Below are positions 1 to 6,078 of a DNA stretch of 64,000 nt, in pieces. The DNA is from a virus, in IMG/VR virus record IMGVR_UViG_3300023202_000142, positions 96,001 to 160,000 of that record; one strand, written 5' to 3'. Numbering within the stretch: position 1 is the stretch's first letter; each line of letters begins with the position of its first letter. Made by a program: the position numbers and the translations under genes. The notes under the pieces are model-generated. The model did not search any database and had not been told where the DNA came from. It worked only from the letters and a program-made list of their open reading frames with translations.

Positions 1-1
1 C

Positions 2-901
2 GTGGCTACCCACAGCAAGATGCGCAAGAGGGCGGCTAAGAGTGTGAGGTCGAAGGGTTCCCGTATGAAGACTGCGTTGGGTACTGGGTTGCCCGATGCG
101 GCTGTTGGTGTTGATCGTGTTCAGCAGTCGATCCTTGGGGAGGATGTCGAGATCAAGCGTGATGCACTGGACGAGTCTGTGCTCGATGAGTTCCGGTCGG
201 AGCCCCATCCTTATTTGCGGGACCGCGGCTTCTCGTTGGCCGCCTGGGATGCCTGGGGTCTAATGTGGGAAGAGAACAGGTCTGGAGACCGGATTGTGTT
301 TCCGATCCGGGATGCTGACGGCCGTCTTCTCGCGTATTCGCGCCGCGTCACCTGGGACAAGCCGGTGTGTCAGTGGTGTGGCGCCACGAGTGGTGTCAGG
401 TTCGGCTCAATGCGCAAAAAGGGGGACCCGAAGTCGAAGGGCGGATGCCCCAGATGTCGGAATCGGTGGATTTGGCCGAAGTACCAGCATTCCAAGGGGT
501 TCAAGAGGAATCTGCTTCTGTATGGCGAGCACATGATCAACCGAGACCTGCGGAAAGGGGTCGTTGTCGAGGGCAATCTCGATCCGATTCGTCTGTGGCA
601 GTTCGGTGTCCAGAATGCTGTTGCGACACTAGGGGCCAGCCCAGGGCTTGGTGGCCCAGATAGCGCAAATGGGAGGCCGGCGGAGCAGCTCTATCGCCTG
701 GGCACGATCTTCGATGACATTTTGGTCATCGCAGACGGCGACAAAGCGGGTCGATCGATGGGCCGCATCATCCAAGACTATTTTCATGGTTGGCCGGTCA
801 GTGTTCGCGTTGAGGTGTGCCCTGACGGCCGCGACCCCGGAGACATGGAACCGGACGATCTGCTAGACCTCATCGGACCCTTCGGGGTGCTGGTCGACTA
901 G
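2..901 (+). CDS. dnaG: DNA primase, DnaG/TOPRIM type (5' truncated by window edge)
   Basis: RIVFPIRDADGR and PKYQHS motifs, TOPRIM glutamate in VVVEGNLD, DxD in IADGDKAG; extra CQWC..CPRC insertion. Confidence 0.9.
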   Translation: MATHSKMRKRAAKSVRSKGSRMKTALGTGLPDAAVGVDRVQQSILGEDVEIKRDALDESVLDEFRSEPHPYLRDRGFSLAAWDAWGLMWEENRSGDRIVFPIRDADGRLLAYSRRVTWDKPVCQWCGATSGVRFGSMRKKGDPKSKGGCPRCRNRWIWPKYQHSKGFKRNLLLYGEHMINRDLRKGVVVEGNLDPIRLWQFGVQNAVATLGASPGLGGPDSANGRPAEQLYRLGTIFDDILVIADGDKAGRSMGRIIQDYFHGWPVSVRVEVCPDGRDPGDMEPDDLLDLIGPFGVLVD

Positions 902-914
902 CACAACGTCGCTG

Positions 915-944
915 TTGACGTCATCCGATGAAGTGTACTAAGTT
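915..944 (+). promoter_or_regulatory. Putative sigma70-type promoter upstream of SSB
   Basis: TTGACG at 915-920; weak -10 (CTAAGT at 17 bp or TAAGTT at 18 bp spacing); intergenic. Confidence 0.5.
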
Positions 945-948
945 CACA
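932..948. promoter_or_regulatory. Degenerate operator copy AGTGTA-CTAAG-TTCACA
   Basis: 3 mismatches to TGTGCA-N5-TGCACA; GTG begins 12 nt after the -35 hexamer, the same offset as at the HTH promoter. Confidence 0.45.
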
Positions 949-1026
949 TTTCTAACCAACGAGGGCACGTAAATAGCGGTCAAAGAAGACCCAAATCAGA
1001 CGCCCTACGAAGCAAGGAGAAGCGAA

Positions 1027-1968
1027 ATGGCATCACGAAGATCTGGAGGACGGCGTTCGTCGCGTCGAGGTTCGAGTAAGGGTTCTGGCCGTAAGGGCAG
1101 GGGCTCGCGTCGATCGCGCAAGGATGACGCGCCTGAGCGCGATGAGGCTGCCGGAGGCGAGGAGAATCAGTGGTTCTCGCGCGGCGCTGACAGCCTGGAG
1201 AAAGAGAAGGAAGACAAGAAAGGGCAGTATCGCGGTGGCGGACCCAGGGAGTTCGACCCGCGGCGCATCTTTCGCTGGTTCATTCCGAACACCGAACTGG
1301 GGGAGCCCAAAGAGGTCCTGTTCCTCGAATCGGACTGTCTCAACGCCTGGATGCATCATTTCAAGAATGATGGGAGGTGGGGCAACTGGGAGACGTGTCC
1401 GCGGCTGACGGGCATGAAGGATGAGCACGGGGATCCGGTGAGCTGTCCGCTGTGCGACAAGGACGACAACGTCTCGACGTCGCTGCTGGGTCACTACACG
1501 ATCCTCGATGTCACGGGGTGGGACGGCGGCGACGGTCATCGCATGGGCCTGAAGATCCTTCCGGCGAAGGAAGAACTGGTCAACAAGCTCGCCCGTCGTC
1601 GTGACAAGTTCCTCGATGACGGCCATGACGGTCTGTTCGGCGCGCTGTTTACCGTGGTTCGAGACACCAAAGACTCGGACAACTGCGGCAACGACTGGGC
1701 GTATGAGGAGCACGTCGACGTCGAGCGATTCCTCGAAGACAACTTCGAGGCGATCGCGACTGGCCTGGACTGGTTCCCCGAGGGCTGGTTTTGGGAGGGC
1801 GAGGGAGATGATCGCGAGTACTGGCTCGGTCCGTTCAAGTGGATGGATATCGTCGCTCCGCGCGACCCTGCGGTGATCGCAGACATCATCGGTGCGAACT
1901 ACGATGGTGCCGAGTTTGATCCCGATGATCTCGACGTCGGCGCCGACGACGACGACCCGGGCTACTGA
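1027..1968 (+). CDS. Single-stranded DNA-binding protein, T4 gp32-like
   Basis: H..C..CPLC zinc site (WMHHF..TCP..CPLCD), basic R/S/G N-terminus, acidic C-terminal tail, AAGGAG RBS, replication context. Confidence 0.75.
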   Translation: MASRRSGGRRSSRRGSSKGSGRKGRGSRRSRKDDAPERDEAAGGEENQWFSRGADSLEKEKEDKKGQYRGGGPREFDPRRIFRWFIPNTELGEPKEVLFLESDCLNAWMHHFKNDGRWGNWETCPRLTGMKDEHGDPVSCPLCDKDDNVSTSLLGHYTILDVTGWDGGDGHRMGLKILPAKEELVNKLARRRDKFLDDGHDGLFGALFTVVRDTKDSDNCGNDWAYEEHVDVERFLEDNFEAIATGLDWFPEGWFWEGEGDDREYWLGPFKWMDIVAPRDPAVIADIIGANYDGAEFDPDDLDVGADDDDPGY

Positions 1969-2009
1969 GCCGATTCGGCGCGGTCGGCGTCATAGCCGGC
2001 CGCGCCCTT

Positions 2010-2090
2010 GCGGCACCCACTTCCGAGGAACCGGAAGATGCGGTCGACACGGCTTGTCGTGCTCTCCGCGGGTGCCGCTCCCCCTGGGAG
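2010..2090 (+). ncRNA. Candidate cis-regulatory RNA: three-way junction plus SD-occluding hairpin
   Basis: P1 GCGGCACCC/GGGTGCCGC (2010-2018/2070-2078), P2 CTTCCG/CGGAAG, P3 GCGG/CCGC with CGACA/TGTCG; CTCCC/GGGAG hairpin covers the RBS. Confidence 0.45.
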
Positions 2091-2095
2091 CAACC

Positions 2096-2656
2096 ATGGA
2101 CGTCAATCAGGCAGATGAGATGCTCGACATGTACCGTCGGGCGGTGGAGCAAAACGCCGGAAACGATCGGCTGAGGCCAGTCGCGGGCACGGTGCACGTG
2201 CAGCTCATGCCGGAGATTAATCGGCGTGGTGACCTCATTCTCCCGGGTAAGCCGAAGGCCCTGGGTAACCGGCGGATCTGGTGTCGGTATGGCACTGTGA
2301 TCAATGTTGGTGCGGATGTGCCGATGCTGGGGGTCGGTGATGTCGTATTCTTCTCAAACATGTTGGGCATCCGGTTCAGGGGCTACGGTAATCCGTTGAA
2401 GCTCAAGGATCGCGATGTCGCCCACAGTGACGATGAGATTCGTATCCTGAAGGTGAGCGAGGAGTACACCGAGGTCTGGGGGCGATACACGCCTCATCGC
2501 GTCGGGACAACGATCACCTTCGACAAGCCTGGCGATGGCGTCATGACCGCCGAGGTTGTTGACGAGAGCCCCGCCTATGGCGGCTATTTGAAGATTCGGG
2601 AGGGCGACCACGAGTCGTGGGTCCCATATAAGTGGCTGTGCGATGCTGAGGAATGA
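2096..2656 (+). CDS. groES: GroES/Cpn10-like co-chaperonin with C-terminal extension (start reassigned from 1892)
   Basis: LRPVAGTVHVQ..GDLILPG..GTVINVG..VGDVVFF fits the Cpn10 pattern; GGAG RBS before ATG 2096. Confidence 0.8.
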   Translation: MDVNQADEMLDMYRRAVEQNAGNDRLRPVAGTVHVQLMPEINRRGDLILPGKPKALGNRRIWCRYGTVINVGADVPMLGVGDVVFFSNMLGIRFRGYGNPLKLKDRDVAHSDDEIRILKVSEEYTEVWGRYTPHRVGTTITFDKPGDGVMTAEVVDESPAYGGYLKIREGDHESWVPYKWLCDAEE

Positions 2657-4184
2657 GGTGCGAATCGATGGTCGGGCCTGGGTTCCGCGGGCTGTGCTGA
2701 CCGACAGTCAGGTCAACGCGATTCGCCGAAGCACTACGGTGCGTCTGCGTCCCGGCCCGTATGACGAGGCTGGGGCGGTTATTAAGATGGCCGCCGAGGG
2801 CGATTTCGCGATTGGGCTCCCCAGGGGTTTCTATCACCGGACAGCTCGCGGTGGTCTGCCTGTGGAGTACGATGTTACCGAGACGAGACGAGTGCTGGTC
2901 CCGGCCGTTTTTCCCCGTGATGACATGCAGCGCGAGGGGGTCGACACGTTGTCGAAGTACCTCTTGAGCGAGCGCGTGCGCGAGGGGATGTTGTTGGCCG
3001 CGACCGGCACCGGCAAGACAGTCATGGGGCTTCTGATTGCCGCGAAGATGGGCATGACGACTTTGATTGTCGTGCACACCACGATGCTACTCAACCAGTG
3101 GGTGGAGCGTATCAAGACGGAGCCCGGGGTGTTCCCCGATGCTGATGTCGGAATCTTCCGCGGTGATGACGAGGAGTTCGGCGGCGACTACGACATCGTT
3201 ATCGCGATGGTGCAGACGCTGGCGAACCGTTCCGCCGACCACCCCATCTTCGACTGGCCAGGTTTCATCATCGTTGATGAGTGCCACCGCCTCGGCGCCC
3301 CGACGTGGAATGAGGTTGCACACTACTTCAAGGCGGCGAAGCGTTTGGGGCTAACCGCGACACCGCGGCGAAGTGATGGCGGTGAACAGCTTTTTTTCGA
3401 CACCCTCGGGGATATCGTGTGGGAAGCGAAGGCCCCGATGATGGTGCCTCGCGTGCGCAAGGTGAAGACGGCGTTCCGGTTCAAGAAGGACTCCTATCCG
3501 TTGCACGTCGAGACGACGATCATGGTCCGGGATAGCGCACGCAATGCGTTGATCGTGCAGGAGATAGCGCTCGCAAGGAAGAGCTATCGGCATATCCTGG
3601 TCCTGGTGACCCGCACGGAGCACGCTCTGCGCTTGAAGCGGCTGATTAATGCTCAGGTGTCGGATGCCAGCGTGGGTGTCTGTGTCGGCTCCTGGTACGC
3701 CGATGAGGATGACGCGTTTGAGTACTGCGAGAGCGCGAGAGACTACCAGGATAAGTTCAAGACTGACGAGGGTAAGTACTCAGTCGCGCACAACGAGGAC
3801 AAGGACCGCTGGGAGACAGGGGATCTGATCGATGACGACATCCACAAGGTGTCTTGGAAGGACAAGGACCGTGGCAAGATCAAGAAGGTGAAGCCCCGGC
3901 GCCGCCGTCTCTCCGAGGAGGCGATCAAGGAAGCCGTGCAGTGTGACATCGTGATCGCGACTGAAAAGATGGTGAAGGAAGGGTTTGATGTGCCGAGCCT
4001 GGACACTCTTTTCATCACCATGCCGACGTGGGACCCGGTGCAGTCGACCGGCCGAATTCTTCGGCTTCATGAGGAGAAGCAGGAGCCGATCGTCACCCAC
4101 TTCGTCGACGATAATGTCAAAAAGTATGTTCGGGCATGGCACTCATCACGTAAGCACTACCAGGACCTCGGGTCGGACATATGA
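2643..4184 (+). CDS. Superfamily 2 DNA helicase (UvsW-like); start may be GTG 2658
   Basis: AATGTGKT, DECH, LGLTATP, EGFDVPSLD and QSTGRILR motifs. Confidence 0.92.
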   Translation: MLRNEVRIDGRAWVPRAVLTDSQVNAIRRSTTVRLRPGPYDEAGAVIKMAAEGDFAIGLPRGFYHRTARGGLPVEYDVTETRRVLVPAVFPRDDMQREGVDTLSKYLLSERVREGMLLAATGTGKTVMGLLIAAKMGMTTLIVVHTTMLLNQWVERIKTEPGVFPDADVGIFRGDDEEFGGDYDIVIAMVQTLANRSADHPIFDWPGFIIVDECHRLGAPTWNEVAHYFKAAKRLGLTATPRRSDGGEQLFFDTLGDIVWEAKAPMMVPRVRKVKTAFRFKKDSYPLHVETTIMVRDSARNALIVQEIALARKSYRHILVLVTRTEHALRLKRLINAQVSDASVGVCVGSWYADEDDAFEYCESARDYQDKFKTDEGKYSVAHNEDKDRWETGDLIDDDIHKVSWKDKDRGKIKKVKPRRRRLSEEAIKEAVQCDIVIATEKMVKEGFDVPSLDTLFITMPTWDPVQSTGRILRLHEEKQEPIVTHFVDDNVKKYVRAWHSSRKHYQDLGSDI

Positions 4185-5614
4185 GCAAGACGCCAACGCG
4201 CCAGGAGCGGCTCCGCGCCGTGCAGAAGAACACCCAGAAGGCGATGGGTAAGCATCACCTTGTCTTTGCGGATGCCGGGTACGTGAAACGGCCGATGATC
4301 CCCATCAACTGCATTCAAATGGACGCGGCAATGGGCGGCGGGTTCCAGGCCGGAGGTTTTCACCTGTTGTGGGGCTGGGAGGCCGGTGGCAAGACCACGA
4401 CGGCGCTCAAGGCGCTGTCGAACGCCCAGAAGATGTGTGCGAAGTGCACGACGTTCATTCAGCCGTCGTTGCTTGTTGAGCCGATCGATGAGCCCGACGA
4501 GTGGTTATCGAAGCGGTGGCAGTGCCAGTCCTGCTTCGCGCCGTACCATGAGGACGAGCGACCGATTTCGTCGTTGTATGACTGGACCAAGGAGGAGGGA
4601 GGAGACACCAAGGGGATCGACAAGGCCCATGTCATCTGTGTTGAGTGTGGTGTTCACGGGTCCAAGGATGACGTCTTCGGCAAGCTGGGTGAGAAGGATA
4701 ATTGGGACCGCATTGAAGGTGATGCGAATTGCGAGTGCGGTGCCAACGAGCCGTCGATCGGCCTGTTTGTCGATTTCGAGGGCCGCCTCGACCTGGAGTG
4801 GGCGCAGGCTCTCGGCGTCGATTCGAGCAGGATGCTGCTGGAGGAACCGGAGTACGGCGAGGCGGGCGTTGACGTCATCAGGGAGTGTATCGGTCAGGGG
4901 GTCGTCGACTTCGTTGTGATTGACTCGATCAGTCATATCACGGCGTCAGCAGAGATTGATGCGACCTCGGAGGACGCCGTTGTCGGCACCTCGGCTCGAC
5001 TGGTCAATCGGTTCTTGCGTCAACTCCCTGGTCTACAGCACCGGGCCAGGAACGACTGGGGTGTGCGTCCGACGGTGATCGGCATCAACCAGGTGCGACA
5101 CAAGATCGGAACGTTCGGTGGCCACACGACGTTCGGTGGCGAAGGTCAGAAGTTCTCGGCCTCGTCGACCGTGAAGTTCACGTCTAGCAATGCTGAGCGG
5201 GATCGGGTCCAGGTAGGCCGCAAGACGCGCAAAGAGTATCTGGGTTTGGCGAAGATGACGACGATCAAGGCGCGGACGGAGAAATCGTCGGTGCGCGCGG
5301 TGAGGTCGTTGGATTTCGAAATGTACCTTGTCACCGCCGACCACGATGGTCTCAGGAAGGGTGAGTTCGATGACTACTCGTTGACCTATAACTGGGGTCG
5401 CAGCTCCGGCATTATCGAGAAGAGGTCGTCGGGAGATCCCGGGTATCGCAAGGGTCTTCCGTGGAGTGTAAGGGGGTGGCCTCAGACGTTCCGTACCGCT
5501 GAGGACCTGCAGGACGAGATGCACCGTAACCCGTTCTTCAAGATGCACATCCACCGCCATGTGATCCAGCTTGTGCATGAGGACTGGACGGTACTCAAGG
5601 AGAAGCTGGAGTGA
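4181..5614 (+). CDS. recA: RecA/UvsX recombinase with ~108-aa Cys-rich insertion
   Basis: GWEAGGKTT Walker A, FVDFE, VVIDSI Walker B, INQVRHKIG, GGEGQKFSAS. Confidence 0.93.
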   Translation: MSKTPTRQERLRAVQKNTQKAMGKHHLVFADAGYVKRPMIPINCIQMDAAMGGGFQAGGFHLLWGWEAGGKTTTALKALSNAQKMCAKCTTFIQPSLLVEPIDEPDEWLSKRWQCQSCFAPYHEDERPISSLYDWTKEEGGDTKGIDKAHVICVECGVHGSKDDVFGKLGEKDNWDRIEGDANCECGANEPSIGLFVDFEGRLDLEWAQALGVDSSRMLLEEPEYGEAGVDVIRECIGQGVVDFVVIDSISHITASAEIDATSEDAVVGTSARLVNRFLRQLPGLQHRARNDWGVRPTVIGINQVRHKIGTFGGHTTFGGEGQKFSASSTVKFTSSNAERDRVQVGRKTRKEYLGLAKMTTIKARTEKSSVRAVRSLDFEMYLVTADHDGLRKGEFDDYSLTYNWGRSSGIIEKRSSGDPGYRKGLPWSVRGWPQTFRTAEDLQDEMHRNPFFKMHIHRHVIQLVHEDWTVLKEKLE

Positions 5615-6078
5615 GCGGCGACGACGACAGCAAGTTCTTGCCCGAGGGTCGCCGTGTCTTTGGTTCATTCATCAAGGGTGCCGACAAGAAGTCTCAGAAG
5701 CGAAAGCGCAAACGGTCGATCAGGCAGGAGGATCGCATTGCCGAGGAGATCGGGGGTCGTCGCGTTCCTGGCTCCGGCAACAAGGCGTCGGGAATGCAGG
5801 TTGGTGGCGGTGCCCACGGAACCCGGGGCTCCAGCGGGGACGTGAACTCCAGGGACTTCAAGGTCGAGGCGAAGTACACCGACAAGAAGAGCTACCGTAT
5901 CGATGAGAAGACGGTCCTGAAAGCGTTTTTCGAGGCCGAAACGGAGGGCAAGGATTGGTTGCTCCAGGTGGATATCCATGGGTTCGACTCAGTCGGCCCC
6001 AGCCGCTTCGCCATTCTGGACTGGGACGTGTTTGTTGAGCTGTTGTCGAGGGCAAGAGGGGATGATGAGTCCAGTTAG
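5611..6078 (+). CDS. PD-(D/E)xK endonuclease, Holliday junction resolvase (Hjc-like)
   Basis: EDRIA..GGRRVPGSG followed by GDV..FKVEAK catalytic pattern. Confidence 0.7.
   Translation: MSGDDDSKFLPEGRRVFGSFIKGADKKSQKRKRKRSIRQEDRIAEEIGGRRVPGSGNKASGMQVGGGAHGTRGSSGDVNSRDFKVEAKYTDKKSYRIDEKTVLKAFFEAETEGKDWLLQVDIHGFDSVGPSRFAILDWDVFVELLSRARGDDESS

Follow-up and report, generated by a model that had tools for sequence, protein, structure and literature searches.

A structured intercistronic RNA element beside the ribosome-binding site of a GroES-like gene in an uncultured phage: a candidate translational operator

Phages carry operators that are bound by their own proteins, as exemplified by the leader pseudoknot of T4 gene 32, the hairpin operator of T4 gp43 and the coat-protein hairpin of MS2. 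The element described here resembles these operators in being a compact RNA at a ribosome-binding site, in its association with a replication/recombination gene and in its single copy per genome. It differs from them in its three-way junction, in the lack of any sequence or Rfam kinship with them and in having a cognate protein that is a candidate only.

The dual-site operators of the CsrA/RsmA proteins, such as those of E. coli glgC and P. fluorescens hcnA-RsmE, form another described system, in which one GGA is located upstream in a loop and a second GGA lies in the Shine-Dalgarno (SD) sequence, and in which the CsrA dimer bridges sites 10-63 nt apart, as in glgC (PMC7652899). The same disposition of the two GGA motifs, with a spacing within the bridging range and a csrA gene in the same genome, is observed at the present locus. 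It differs from the CsrA/RsmA operators in that its loop (AGGAAC, or AGGAAU in the closest relative) is carried on a 6-bp GC-rich stem, in that the hairpin is an arm of a closed three-way junction and in that no regulon-wide enrichment of such hairpins is seen; as a CsrA target it is putative. Further likenesses are found with the R sites of the T7 early mRNA (R0.3-R1.3), which are likewise intercistronic and placed just 5' of the next ribosome-binding site, have an asymmetric internal loop, and drift in sequence while the pairing is kept (PMC3867540); their stacked duplex of about two turns would be approached here if P1 and P3 were coaxial, although the P2 branch interrupts this helix. Substrates of RNase III span about 22 bp, or two helical turns; internal loops direct single-strand cuts, and the resulting 3' ends are determinants of stability (PMC3867540). 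The locus departs from the R sites in possessing a third arm with a conserved loop and a short upper helix, and cleavage here is putative. The comparisons reported below indicate that it represents a real, undescribed, structured mRNA element adjoining a ribosome-binding site, and it belongs to the broad class of cis-acting mRNA leader/intercistronic elements.

The window is the whole stretch of DNA that was analysed, 64,000 nucleotides in length, and was taken from an IMG/VR virus record of 185,324 bp, of which it covers bases 96001-160000. This record represents an uncultured phage with 59% GC and a CheckV completeness of about 90%, and its major capsid protein is only 25-34% identical to the gp23-type capsids of large myoviruses, T4-like ones included. 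Among the INPHARED phages, neither a DNA match to the element region nor a protein match to P0001, the product of the downstream gene, was found. The features considered are listed below, with the first fourteen numbered within the window and the last two located outside it.

2-901, + strand: Toprim primase-like open reading frame (from the ORF list)
915-944, + strand: candidate sigma-70-like promoter, TTGACG, 18-nt spacer, TAAGTT (read from the sequence)
1027-1968, + strand: upstream cistron encoding 313 aa (from the ORF list)
1969-2095, + strand: intergenic gap of 127 nt between the 313-aa gene and P0001
1977-1988/1995-2006, + strand: hairpin 1, 12 bp, GC-rich, loop GUCAUA (RNAfold and sequence)
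2010-2078, + strand: three-way junction of 69 nt (RNAfold and sequence)
2010-2018/2070-2078, + strand: P1, the 9-bp junction helix
2020-2025/2032-2037, + strand: P2, a 6-bp junction arm with the loop AGGAAC (2026-2031)
2040-2043/2066-2069, + strand: outer helix of P3, GCGG/CCGC, 4 bp (the junction arm extends over 2040-2069)
2045-2049/2055-2059, + strand: inner helix of P3, CGACA/TGTCG, 5 bp
2079-2095, + strand: C-rich linker UCCCCCU, SD sequence GGGAG (2086-2090) and 5-nt spacer (from the sequence)
2096-2656, + strand: downstream cistron P0001, 186 aa, start codon at 2096
2643-4184, + strand: SNF2/ResIII helicase gene, its start overlapping the stop of P0001 by 14 nt
4181-5614, + strand: RecA/UvsX-like gene, its start overlapping the stop of the helicase gene by 4 nt
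G000:C1:77823-78056 (L256:1414-1647), - strand: intact CsrA of 77 aa (PF02599)
G000:C1:71203-71502, - strand: Cpn10/GroES gene of the early region, 107-aa open reading frame (PF00166, 39 bits)

The gap is situated in a replication/recombination block, all genes of which are encoded on the + strand. The order of the P0001, helicase and RecA-like genes and their overlaps recur in relatives, and the latter two genes are probably coupled translationally to P0001 through the overlapping starts. The 313-aa protein encoded upstream has no Pfam match and a weak match to PHROG 17226, a family of unknown function; it is 61% identical to its orthologue in the closest relative of the phage, IMGVR_UViG_3300010430_005020 (hereafter L002), in which the protein P0002 is 69% identical to P0001. 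The promoter candidate at 915-944 lies 5' of the 313-aa gene, is followed by CACATTTC and was left unflagged by a consensus promoter scanner. A counterpart is present in L002 at about 1735-1765, 5' of the orthologue, with TTGACG, a 17-nt spacer and TAGGTT. Reading of the sequence and the scanner revealed neither a promoter nor a U-tract terminator in the gap (1969-2095). Since the promoter candidate is located upstream of the 313-aa gene and the gap contains neither kind of signal, the hairpin and the junction are most simply read as intercistronic structures inside a polycistronic mRNA.

The gap is best explained as a functional cis-acting intercistronic module of the + strand, in which a hairpin and a three-way junction precede a C-rich linker and the SD sequence. 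All the stems named in the earlier note were located where it had placed them, along with the start codon at 2096 and the absence of a U-tract. Hairpin 1 begins 8 nt past the stop codon of the 313-aa gene and has no U-tract behind it; its core, CGGTCGGC/GCCGGCCG at 1981-1988/1995-2002, is extended by flanking pairs to a total of 12 bp, including one U-G wobble (1984-1999). In the junction, a 6-nt internal loop is present on the 3' side of P3 between its two helices. With linkers of 1, 2 and 0 nt between the arms, P1 is probably stacked on P3, and P2 would protrude at the side.

The region 1969-2110 folds with a predicted energy of -76 kcal/mol, as against -58.8 +/- 4.1 kcal/mol in 200 dinucleotide shuffles, none of which was as good (RNAfold; z -4.15), and the junction by itself reaches -39.1 kcal/mol (z -3.68); the comparison with shuffled sequences that had been proposed for this gap thus came out in favour of a structure. 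The region ranks within the top 13 of the 120-nt windows of the 185-kb genome by structure after correction for GC. The element has 71% GC and is single-copy in the genome, with no repeats. The two strands of the junction fold alike (-39.1 and -39.5 kcal/mol); the + strand is favoured by the U-G pair at 1984-1999 in the window and by U-G pairs of L002 (P3; U2948 with a G), which would become A-C mismatches on the - strand. No Rfam 15 family matched in a cmscan search of window positions 1-6000 at E values up to 10, where only spurious matches to mir-598 and sR28, far below threshold, were returned. This agrees with the initial view, in which no known riboswitch or ribozyme core had been recognised. 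ARAGORN detected no tRNA- or tmRNA-like gene.

Comparison with L002 provides the main evidence for selection on the element. In L002 the corresponding gap measures 221 nt, and L002:2915-2984 within it shares this architecture. When a covariance model was made from nothing but the window sequence, it recovered L002:2913-3001 with 41 bits (E 1e-7); searches of the window, the 185-kb genome and distant relatives with this model brought no further copy. In the model-guided alignment of the window and L002, all the 24 base pairs are kept (24/24). Four pairs carry double-sided changes (two of them in P2 and a single one in each of P1 and P3), a further pair changes from C-G to U-G, and pairing falls to 30-52% when the 3' partners are slid out of register. 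Paired positions of the junction are identical at 37 of 48 sites and unpaired positions at 8 of 28, which is about neutral. The P2 loop is the exception among the unpaired parts, with five of its six positions identical and AGGAA kept (AGGAAC in the window and AGGAAU in L002). The CUCCCC tract ahead of the SD sequence is also kept in L002. The internal loop on the 3' side of P3 is 6 nt long in the window and 5 nt long in L002, its position being kept and its sequence not. The hairpin found at the equivalent place in L002 shows one double-sided change and one U-G/C-G change relative to hairpin 1. The P3 loop of L002 contains AGGA.

Four-fold synonymous sites in three flanking genes are only 36-40% identical between the two phages, which amounts to saturation. 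Since the base pairs are kept while these sites are saturated, the element is under selection, which has retained the fold, the P2 loop and the tail before the SD sequence rather than an unpaired pocket. The earlier proposal of a new cis-regulatory element is thus upheld to the extent of a real, selected, structured RNA outside Rfam beside the ribosome-binding site. The search for homologues and covariation, which it had suggested, was fruitful in part: one homologue with four double-sided changes was obtained, while the shuffle control for covariation was weak (39/500), with just two sequences and an alignment fitted to the structure. For this reason the argument from divergence is considered stronger than the count of covarying pairs.

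Among the matches listed, the element is found in two uncultured phages, that of the window and L002. A search of IMG/VR with the pattern GCGGCACC-N40-70-GGTGCCGCTCCCC yielded L002 and two chance matches in coding regions and nothing else, and a pattern independent of P1 yielded L002 and one chance match. Among the matches listed for a three-block pattern in metagenome contigs, and for a loop-plus-tail pattern in IMG/VR, were GC-rich chance matches, and no further copy was found among the matches listed in a BLAST of 254 fetched loci. Protein-based searches returned the one close relative and about 15 distant relatives of P0001 (24-47% identity), in which the gene order is kept and the element is missing at the same gene junction. 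The gaps of the distant relatives at this place are of various kinds: 13 nt and unstructured; 59 nt, in which no structure reaches significance; or 97 nt, containing both a hairpin and a canonical U-tract terminator. Since other gaps are carried at this boundary in the distant relatives, the three-way junction is, as judged from these sequences, an addition specific to this lineage, made where the gene boundary is plastic in evolution. An intrinsic terminator, with a 12-bp GC stem followed by UUUUUU, is observed at the same gene junction of a distant relative (L010:790-850, L012:1885-1945), and the SD sequence behind it sits in a GUCC-AGGA-GGAC hairpin.

The downstream gene had been described as groES, coding for a chaperonin cofactor. 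No match was obtained for P0001 in Pfam or PHROGs, and PF00166 (Cpn10) remained unmatched even at E values up to 10. A profile of the 16-member P0001 family, in turn, matches Cpn20, Cpn11 and GroES chains in the PDB (E 2e-5 to 0.01). In a Foldseek search with the AF2 model of P0001 (pLDDT 85), the top matches were all Cpn10, and VIA-align gave Z 9.1 with T4 gp31 (rmsd 3.3, 95 aa) and Z 8.1 with GroES. The predicted layout comprises an N-terminal helix, a gp31/GroES-fold domain at about residues 21-132 and a Tudor/KOW/SH3-like barrel at residues 133-186 (window 2497-2653), the barrel showing Z 6-7 to Tudor, Spt5/NusG KOW and Hfq-like chains, a common fold. P0001 is thus groES-like in its profile and its modelled fold, with a putative co-chaperonin role. 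The fold assignment of the earlier note holds; its plain reading as a chaperonin cofactor is weakened by the missing Cpn10 match, the extra C-terminal barrel, the setting in a replication/recombination operon and the presence of a canonical Cpn10 elsewhere in the genome, the phage thus carrying two GroES-fold genes. As a side observation, autoregulation of P0001 through its barrel, a fold that often binds nucleic acids, is conceivable.

The hairpin proposed to occlude the SD sequence, CTCCC-CCT-GGGAG at 2078-2090, exists and is able to pair, and its predicted hold on the SD sequence is marginal. P1 ends 7 nt before the SD sequence and 17 nt before the AUG. The full 6-bp SD hairpin GCUCCC/GGGAGC requires G2077 and C2078, which form the last pairs of P1, and the two structures therefore compete; once P1 is formed, the SD hairpin is restricted to 4 bp. 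Almost every predicted conformer pairs G2086 and G2087, two nearly isoenergetic local folds exist around the SD sequence, and the predicted occupancy of its GAG part varies from 0.28 to 0.82 depending on the flanks included. Averaged over six sequence contexts, the predicted SD pairing is 0.78, a value that places the gene 53rd among 213, the genome median being 0.66, and the SD region folded by itself shows no advantage over shuffles (z -0.44 and -0.18). When the 3' strand of P1 alone is present, the SD pairing in the window rises to 1.00, while the effect in L002 is small (0.77 vs 0.72). Between 20 and 45 C the predicted pairing declines from 0.96 to 0.82 in the window and from 0.85 to 0.71 in L002, and no fourU or ROSE motif is present. 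Passive occlusion of the SD sequence is possible according to these predictions and unremarkable.

The best guess for the element, a tentative one, is a translational operator bound by a protein. The rigid junction would hold the P2 loop with its AGGAA close to the SD sequence, and an RNA-binding repressor docked on the junction would block the entry of the 30S subunit. Repression would set the translation of the gp31-like gene and, through the overlapping starts, that of the helicase and RecA-like genes as well. The conservation of the helices and of the P2 loop suits a loop displayed on a scaffold, as far as the alignment indicates. The distant relatives of the P0001 gene, which appear to do without the element, speak against an operator. 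We infer the transcription through the gap, the binding of a protein and the direction of its effect.

The leading candidate for the bound protein is CsrA, and its identification as such is doubtful. The PF02599 match within the csrA gene of the phage (G000:C1:77910-78056, - strand) scores 71 bits (E 1.6e-20), and the conserved motifs MLxLTR and VRIGIxAPKE...REE are retained in the encoded protein. RegA, a translation repressor, is missing from the genome. A phage CsrA dimer might bridge the GGA of the P2 loop (2027-2029) and that of the SD sequence (2087-2089), which are separated by 57 nt both in the window and in L002, a spacing within the 10-63 nt bridging range. The P2 loop AGGAAC, on the other hand, is not ANGGAN, as there is no N between the A and the GGA, and it is without the ACA/GU flanks of the SELEX consensus RUACARGGAUGU; the P2 stem, GC-rich and, at 6 bp, longer than the 4 bp or fewer expected of such a site, is stronger than in typical CsrA hairpins. 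Hairpins with a GGA loop are not enriched in the leaders of the phage (8 of 213, a count that several control trinucleotides exceed) or genome-wide (149, as against 156 in the reversed-sequence control), and hence nothing points to a CsrA regulon other than csrA itself. A 69-nt junction would be superfluous for a simple CsrA site, and hairpin 1 would be left unexplained; to our knowledge, no closed three-way-junction hairpin has been described for CsrA targets. The complete proposal, in which the phage CsrA and a dual-GGA operator on a three-way-junction scaffold gate the coupled recombination cassette, is accordingly put forward as a rather unlikely one. In favour of CsrA, a GUC-ACGGAG-GAC hairpin with a hexaloop of the ANGGAN type can be drawn around the SD sequence of the csrA leader; some 17 nt upstream of it, a second hairpin, GAC-AUGGAAC-GUC, can be drawn as well. 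Both were read by eye, the RNAfold minimum free energy structure predicting neither, and the leader looks like one with CsrA autoregulation.

Were the element a regulator, a phage recombination operon would be headed by a cis-acting RNA not described before, in a lineage that lacks cultured relatives and has its own CsrA, and the element would offer a concrete target for the question of the role of phage CsrA. A CsrA operator of this kind, if true, would have an architecture new to the CsrA family and would show a virus timing its replication-recombination genes by means of CsrA. In any of the models, control at the ribosome-binding site could pass down the cassette via the overlapping starts. 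The two natural copies among the matches listed allow no family-level covariation statistics, and we infer the mechanism.

A processing or stability signal of the RNase III type is nearly as likely as an operator, and equally tentative. A cut would split the upstream cistron, with its protective 3' hairpins, from the message for the gp31-like protein, the helicase and the RecA-like protein, and would set their relative stability and translation. The intercistronic location in a probably polycistronic mRNA, the strong hairpin 1 ahead of the junction and the selection on pairing instead of unpaired bases are consistent with such a signal. The linker of 0 nt between P3 and P1 would allow coaxial helices with a total of 18 bp (window) or 21 bp (L002), near the 22 bp of an RNase III substrate, and the internal loop of P3 (5-6 nt, 3' side) has kept its position while its sequence drifted. 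Cleavage would also free the 3' strand of P1 and permit the full 6-bp SD hairpin, for which the predicted pairing in the window is complete (1.00); the small effect in L002 (0.77 vs 0.72) tells against this consequence. The P2 arm, moreover, breaks the helix and would have no role, yet it carries the sole conserved loop, and the upper helix has just 5-6 bp. The selection on helices and not on unpaired bases would also be expected of a passive structural spacer, a stable fold that uncouples the cistrons, stops 3' exonucleases and fixes the context of the ribosome-binding site with no trans factor or switch. Such a spacer would accord with the plasticity of the gene boundary in the relatives (gaps of 13, 59 or 97 nt) and with the restriction of the SD hairpin to 4 bp once P1 forms. 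It is considered improbable, as three arms, the AGGAA loop and the CUCCCC tail have been kept despite saturated neutral sites where a single hairpin would suffice.

A switch sensing a ligand or temperature and hiding the SD sequence in CUCCC-CCU-GGGAG, as had been entertained at the outset, has a slim chance of being correct. The C-rich tract and the SD sequence are conserved and able to pair, hardly any predicted conformer leaves G2086 or G2087 unpaired, and the two nearly isoenergetic local folds would suit switching. A riboswitch is nevertheless unlikely because selection keeps the fold with no conserved nucleotides of an unpaired core: the inter-arm linkers of 0-3 nt and the unconserved unpaired parts, except for the P2 loop, leave no evident pocket, and Rfam gave no match at E values up to 10. 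A thermometer seems unlikely because the fold is very stable, with the junction at about -39 kcal/mol and slight predicted melting between 20 and 45 C (SD pairing 0.96 to 0.82 in the window), and the SD hairpin itself (z -0.44, -0.18; SD pairing rank 53/213) is unexceptional. A signal acting on transcription, either a terminator or attenuator without a U-tract (hairpin 1) or a put-like antiterminator RNA (the junction), was allowed a small chance. The intrinsic terminator of L010/L012 at the same gene junction is a precedent for a transcription boundary here, and the junction is presumably similar in size to the HK022 put RNAs. The terminator reading is unlikely because the gap has no U-tract, while the phage uses textbook U-tract terminators elsewhere, as the earlier note had rightly argued in part; and an antiterminator would find no terminator downstream in the overlapping operon that needs read-through. 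The least probable reading is a feature at the DNA level or a selfish one (a cruciform, an origin or an insertion relic) with no RNA function. Both strands of the junction fold equally well and the element is a lineage-specific insertion relative to the distant phages, which would be in keeping with such a feature; against it, the U-G wobbles are A-C mismatches on the other strand, the element is single-copy without repeats and, at 71% GC, not AT-rich, and its conservation is strong against saturated neutral divergence.

Several specific assignments were rejected. An intrinsic terminator is not formed, as hairpin 1 is trailed by CCCUUGCGG and the junction by UCCCCCUGG, neither with a U-tract. 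A coding role for the gap is rejected: although its frame stays open in the window, an in-frame stop immediately precedes the ATG in L002, and the indels do not come in multiples of three. Stop-codon read-through with hairpin 1 as a SECIS-like structure is unlikely, the extension being 8 codons in the window and about 55 in L002, and so is a -1 frameshift, the CCCGGGC heptamer being unconserved and 16 nt from the hairpin. The junction linkers of 0-3 nt are too short for a hammerhead core, which Rfam likewise did not match. Read on the + strand, a structured region at 89.4-89.9 kb did not look like a CsrB-type sponge.

An early cassette occurs at about 25 sites of the genome (e.g. G000 52.4-54.1 kb, 67-76 kb on the - strand and 168-174 kb) and consists, in order, of TTGAC, a GTGCAC...GTGCAC operator-like palindrome ending in a CATATT-like -10, an ACCCC-loop hairpin and the ribosome-binding site GGAGGTAGC. 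No member of it is present in the gap. The leaders of the early cassette, with their ACCCC-loop GC hairpin, resemble the junction region in showing a C-rich tract just 5' of a G-rich SD sequence. They differ in their TTGAC/GTGCAC-operator promoter, simple hairpins and about 25 copies, whereas the junction has no such promoter, is single-copy and precedes GGGAGC instead of GGAGGTAGC. Two strong U-tract terminators are located at G000 59.25-59.31 kb and 61.14-61.20 kb (+ strand), and both are followed by the shared motif GGGTCTTTGA(C/A)AA(C/T)TGAAG, possibly representing another class of promoter.
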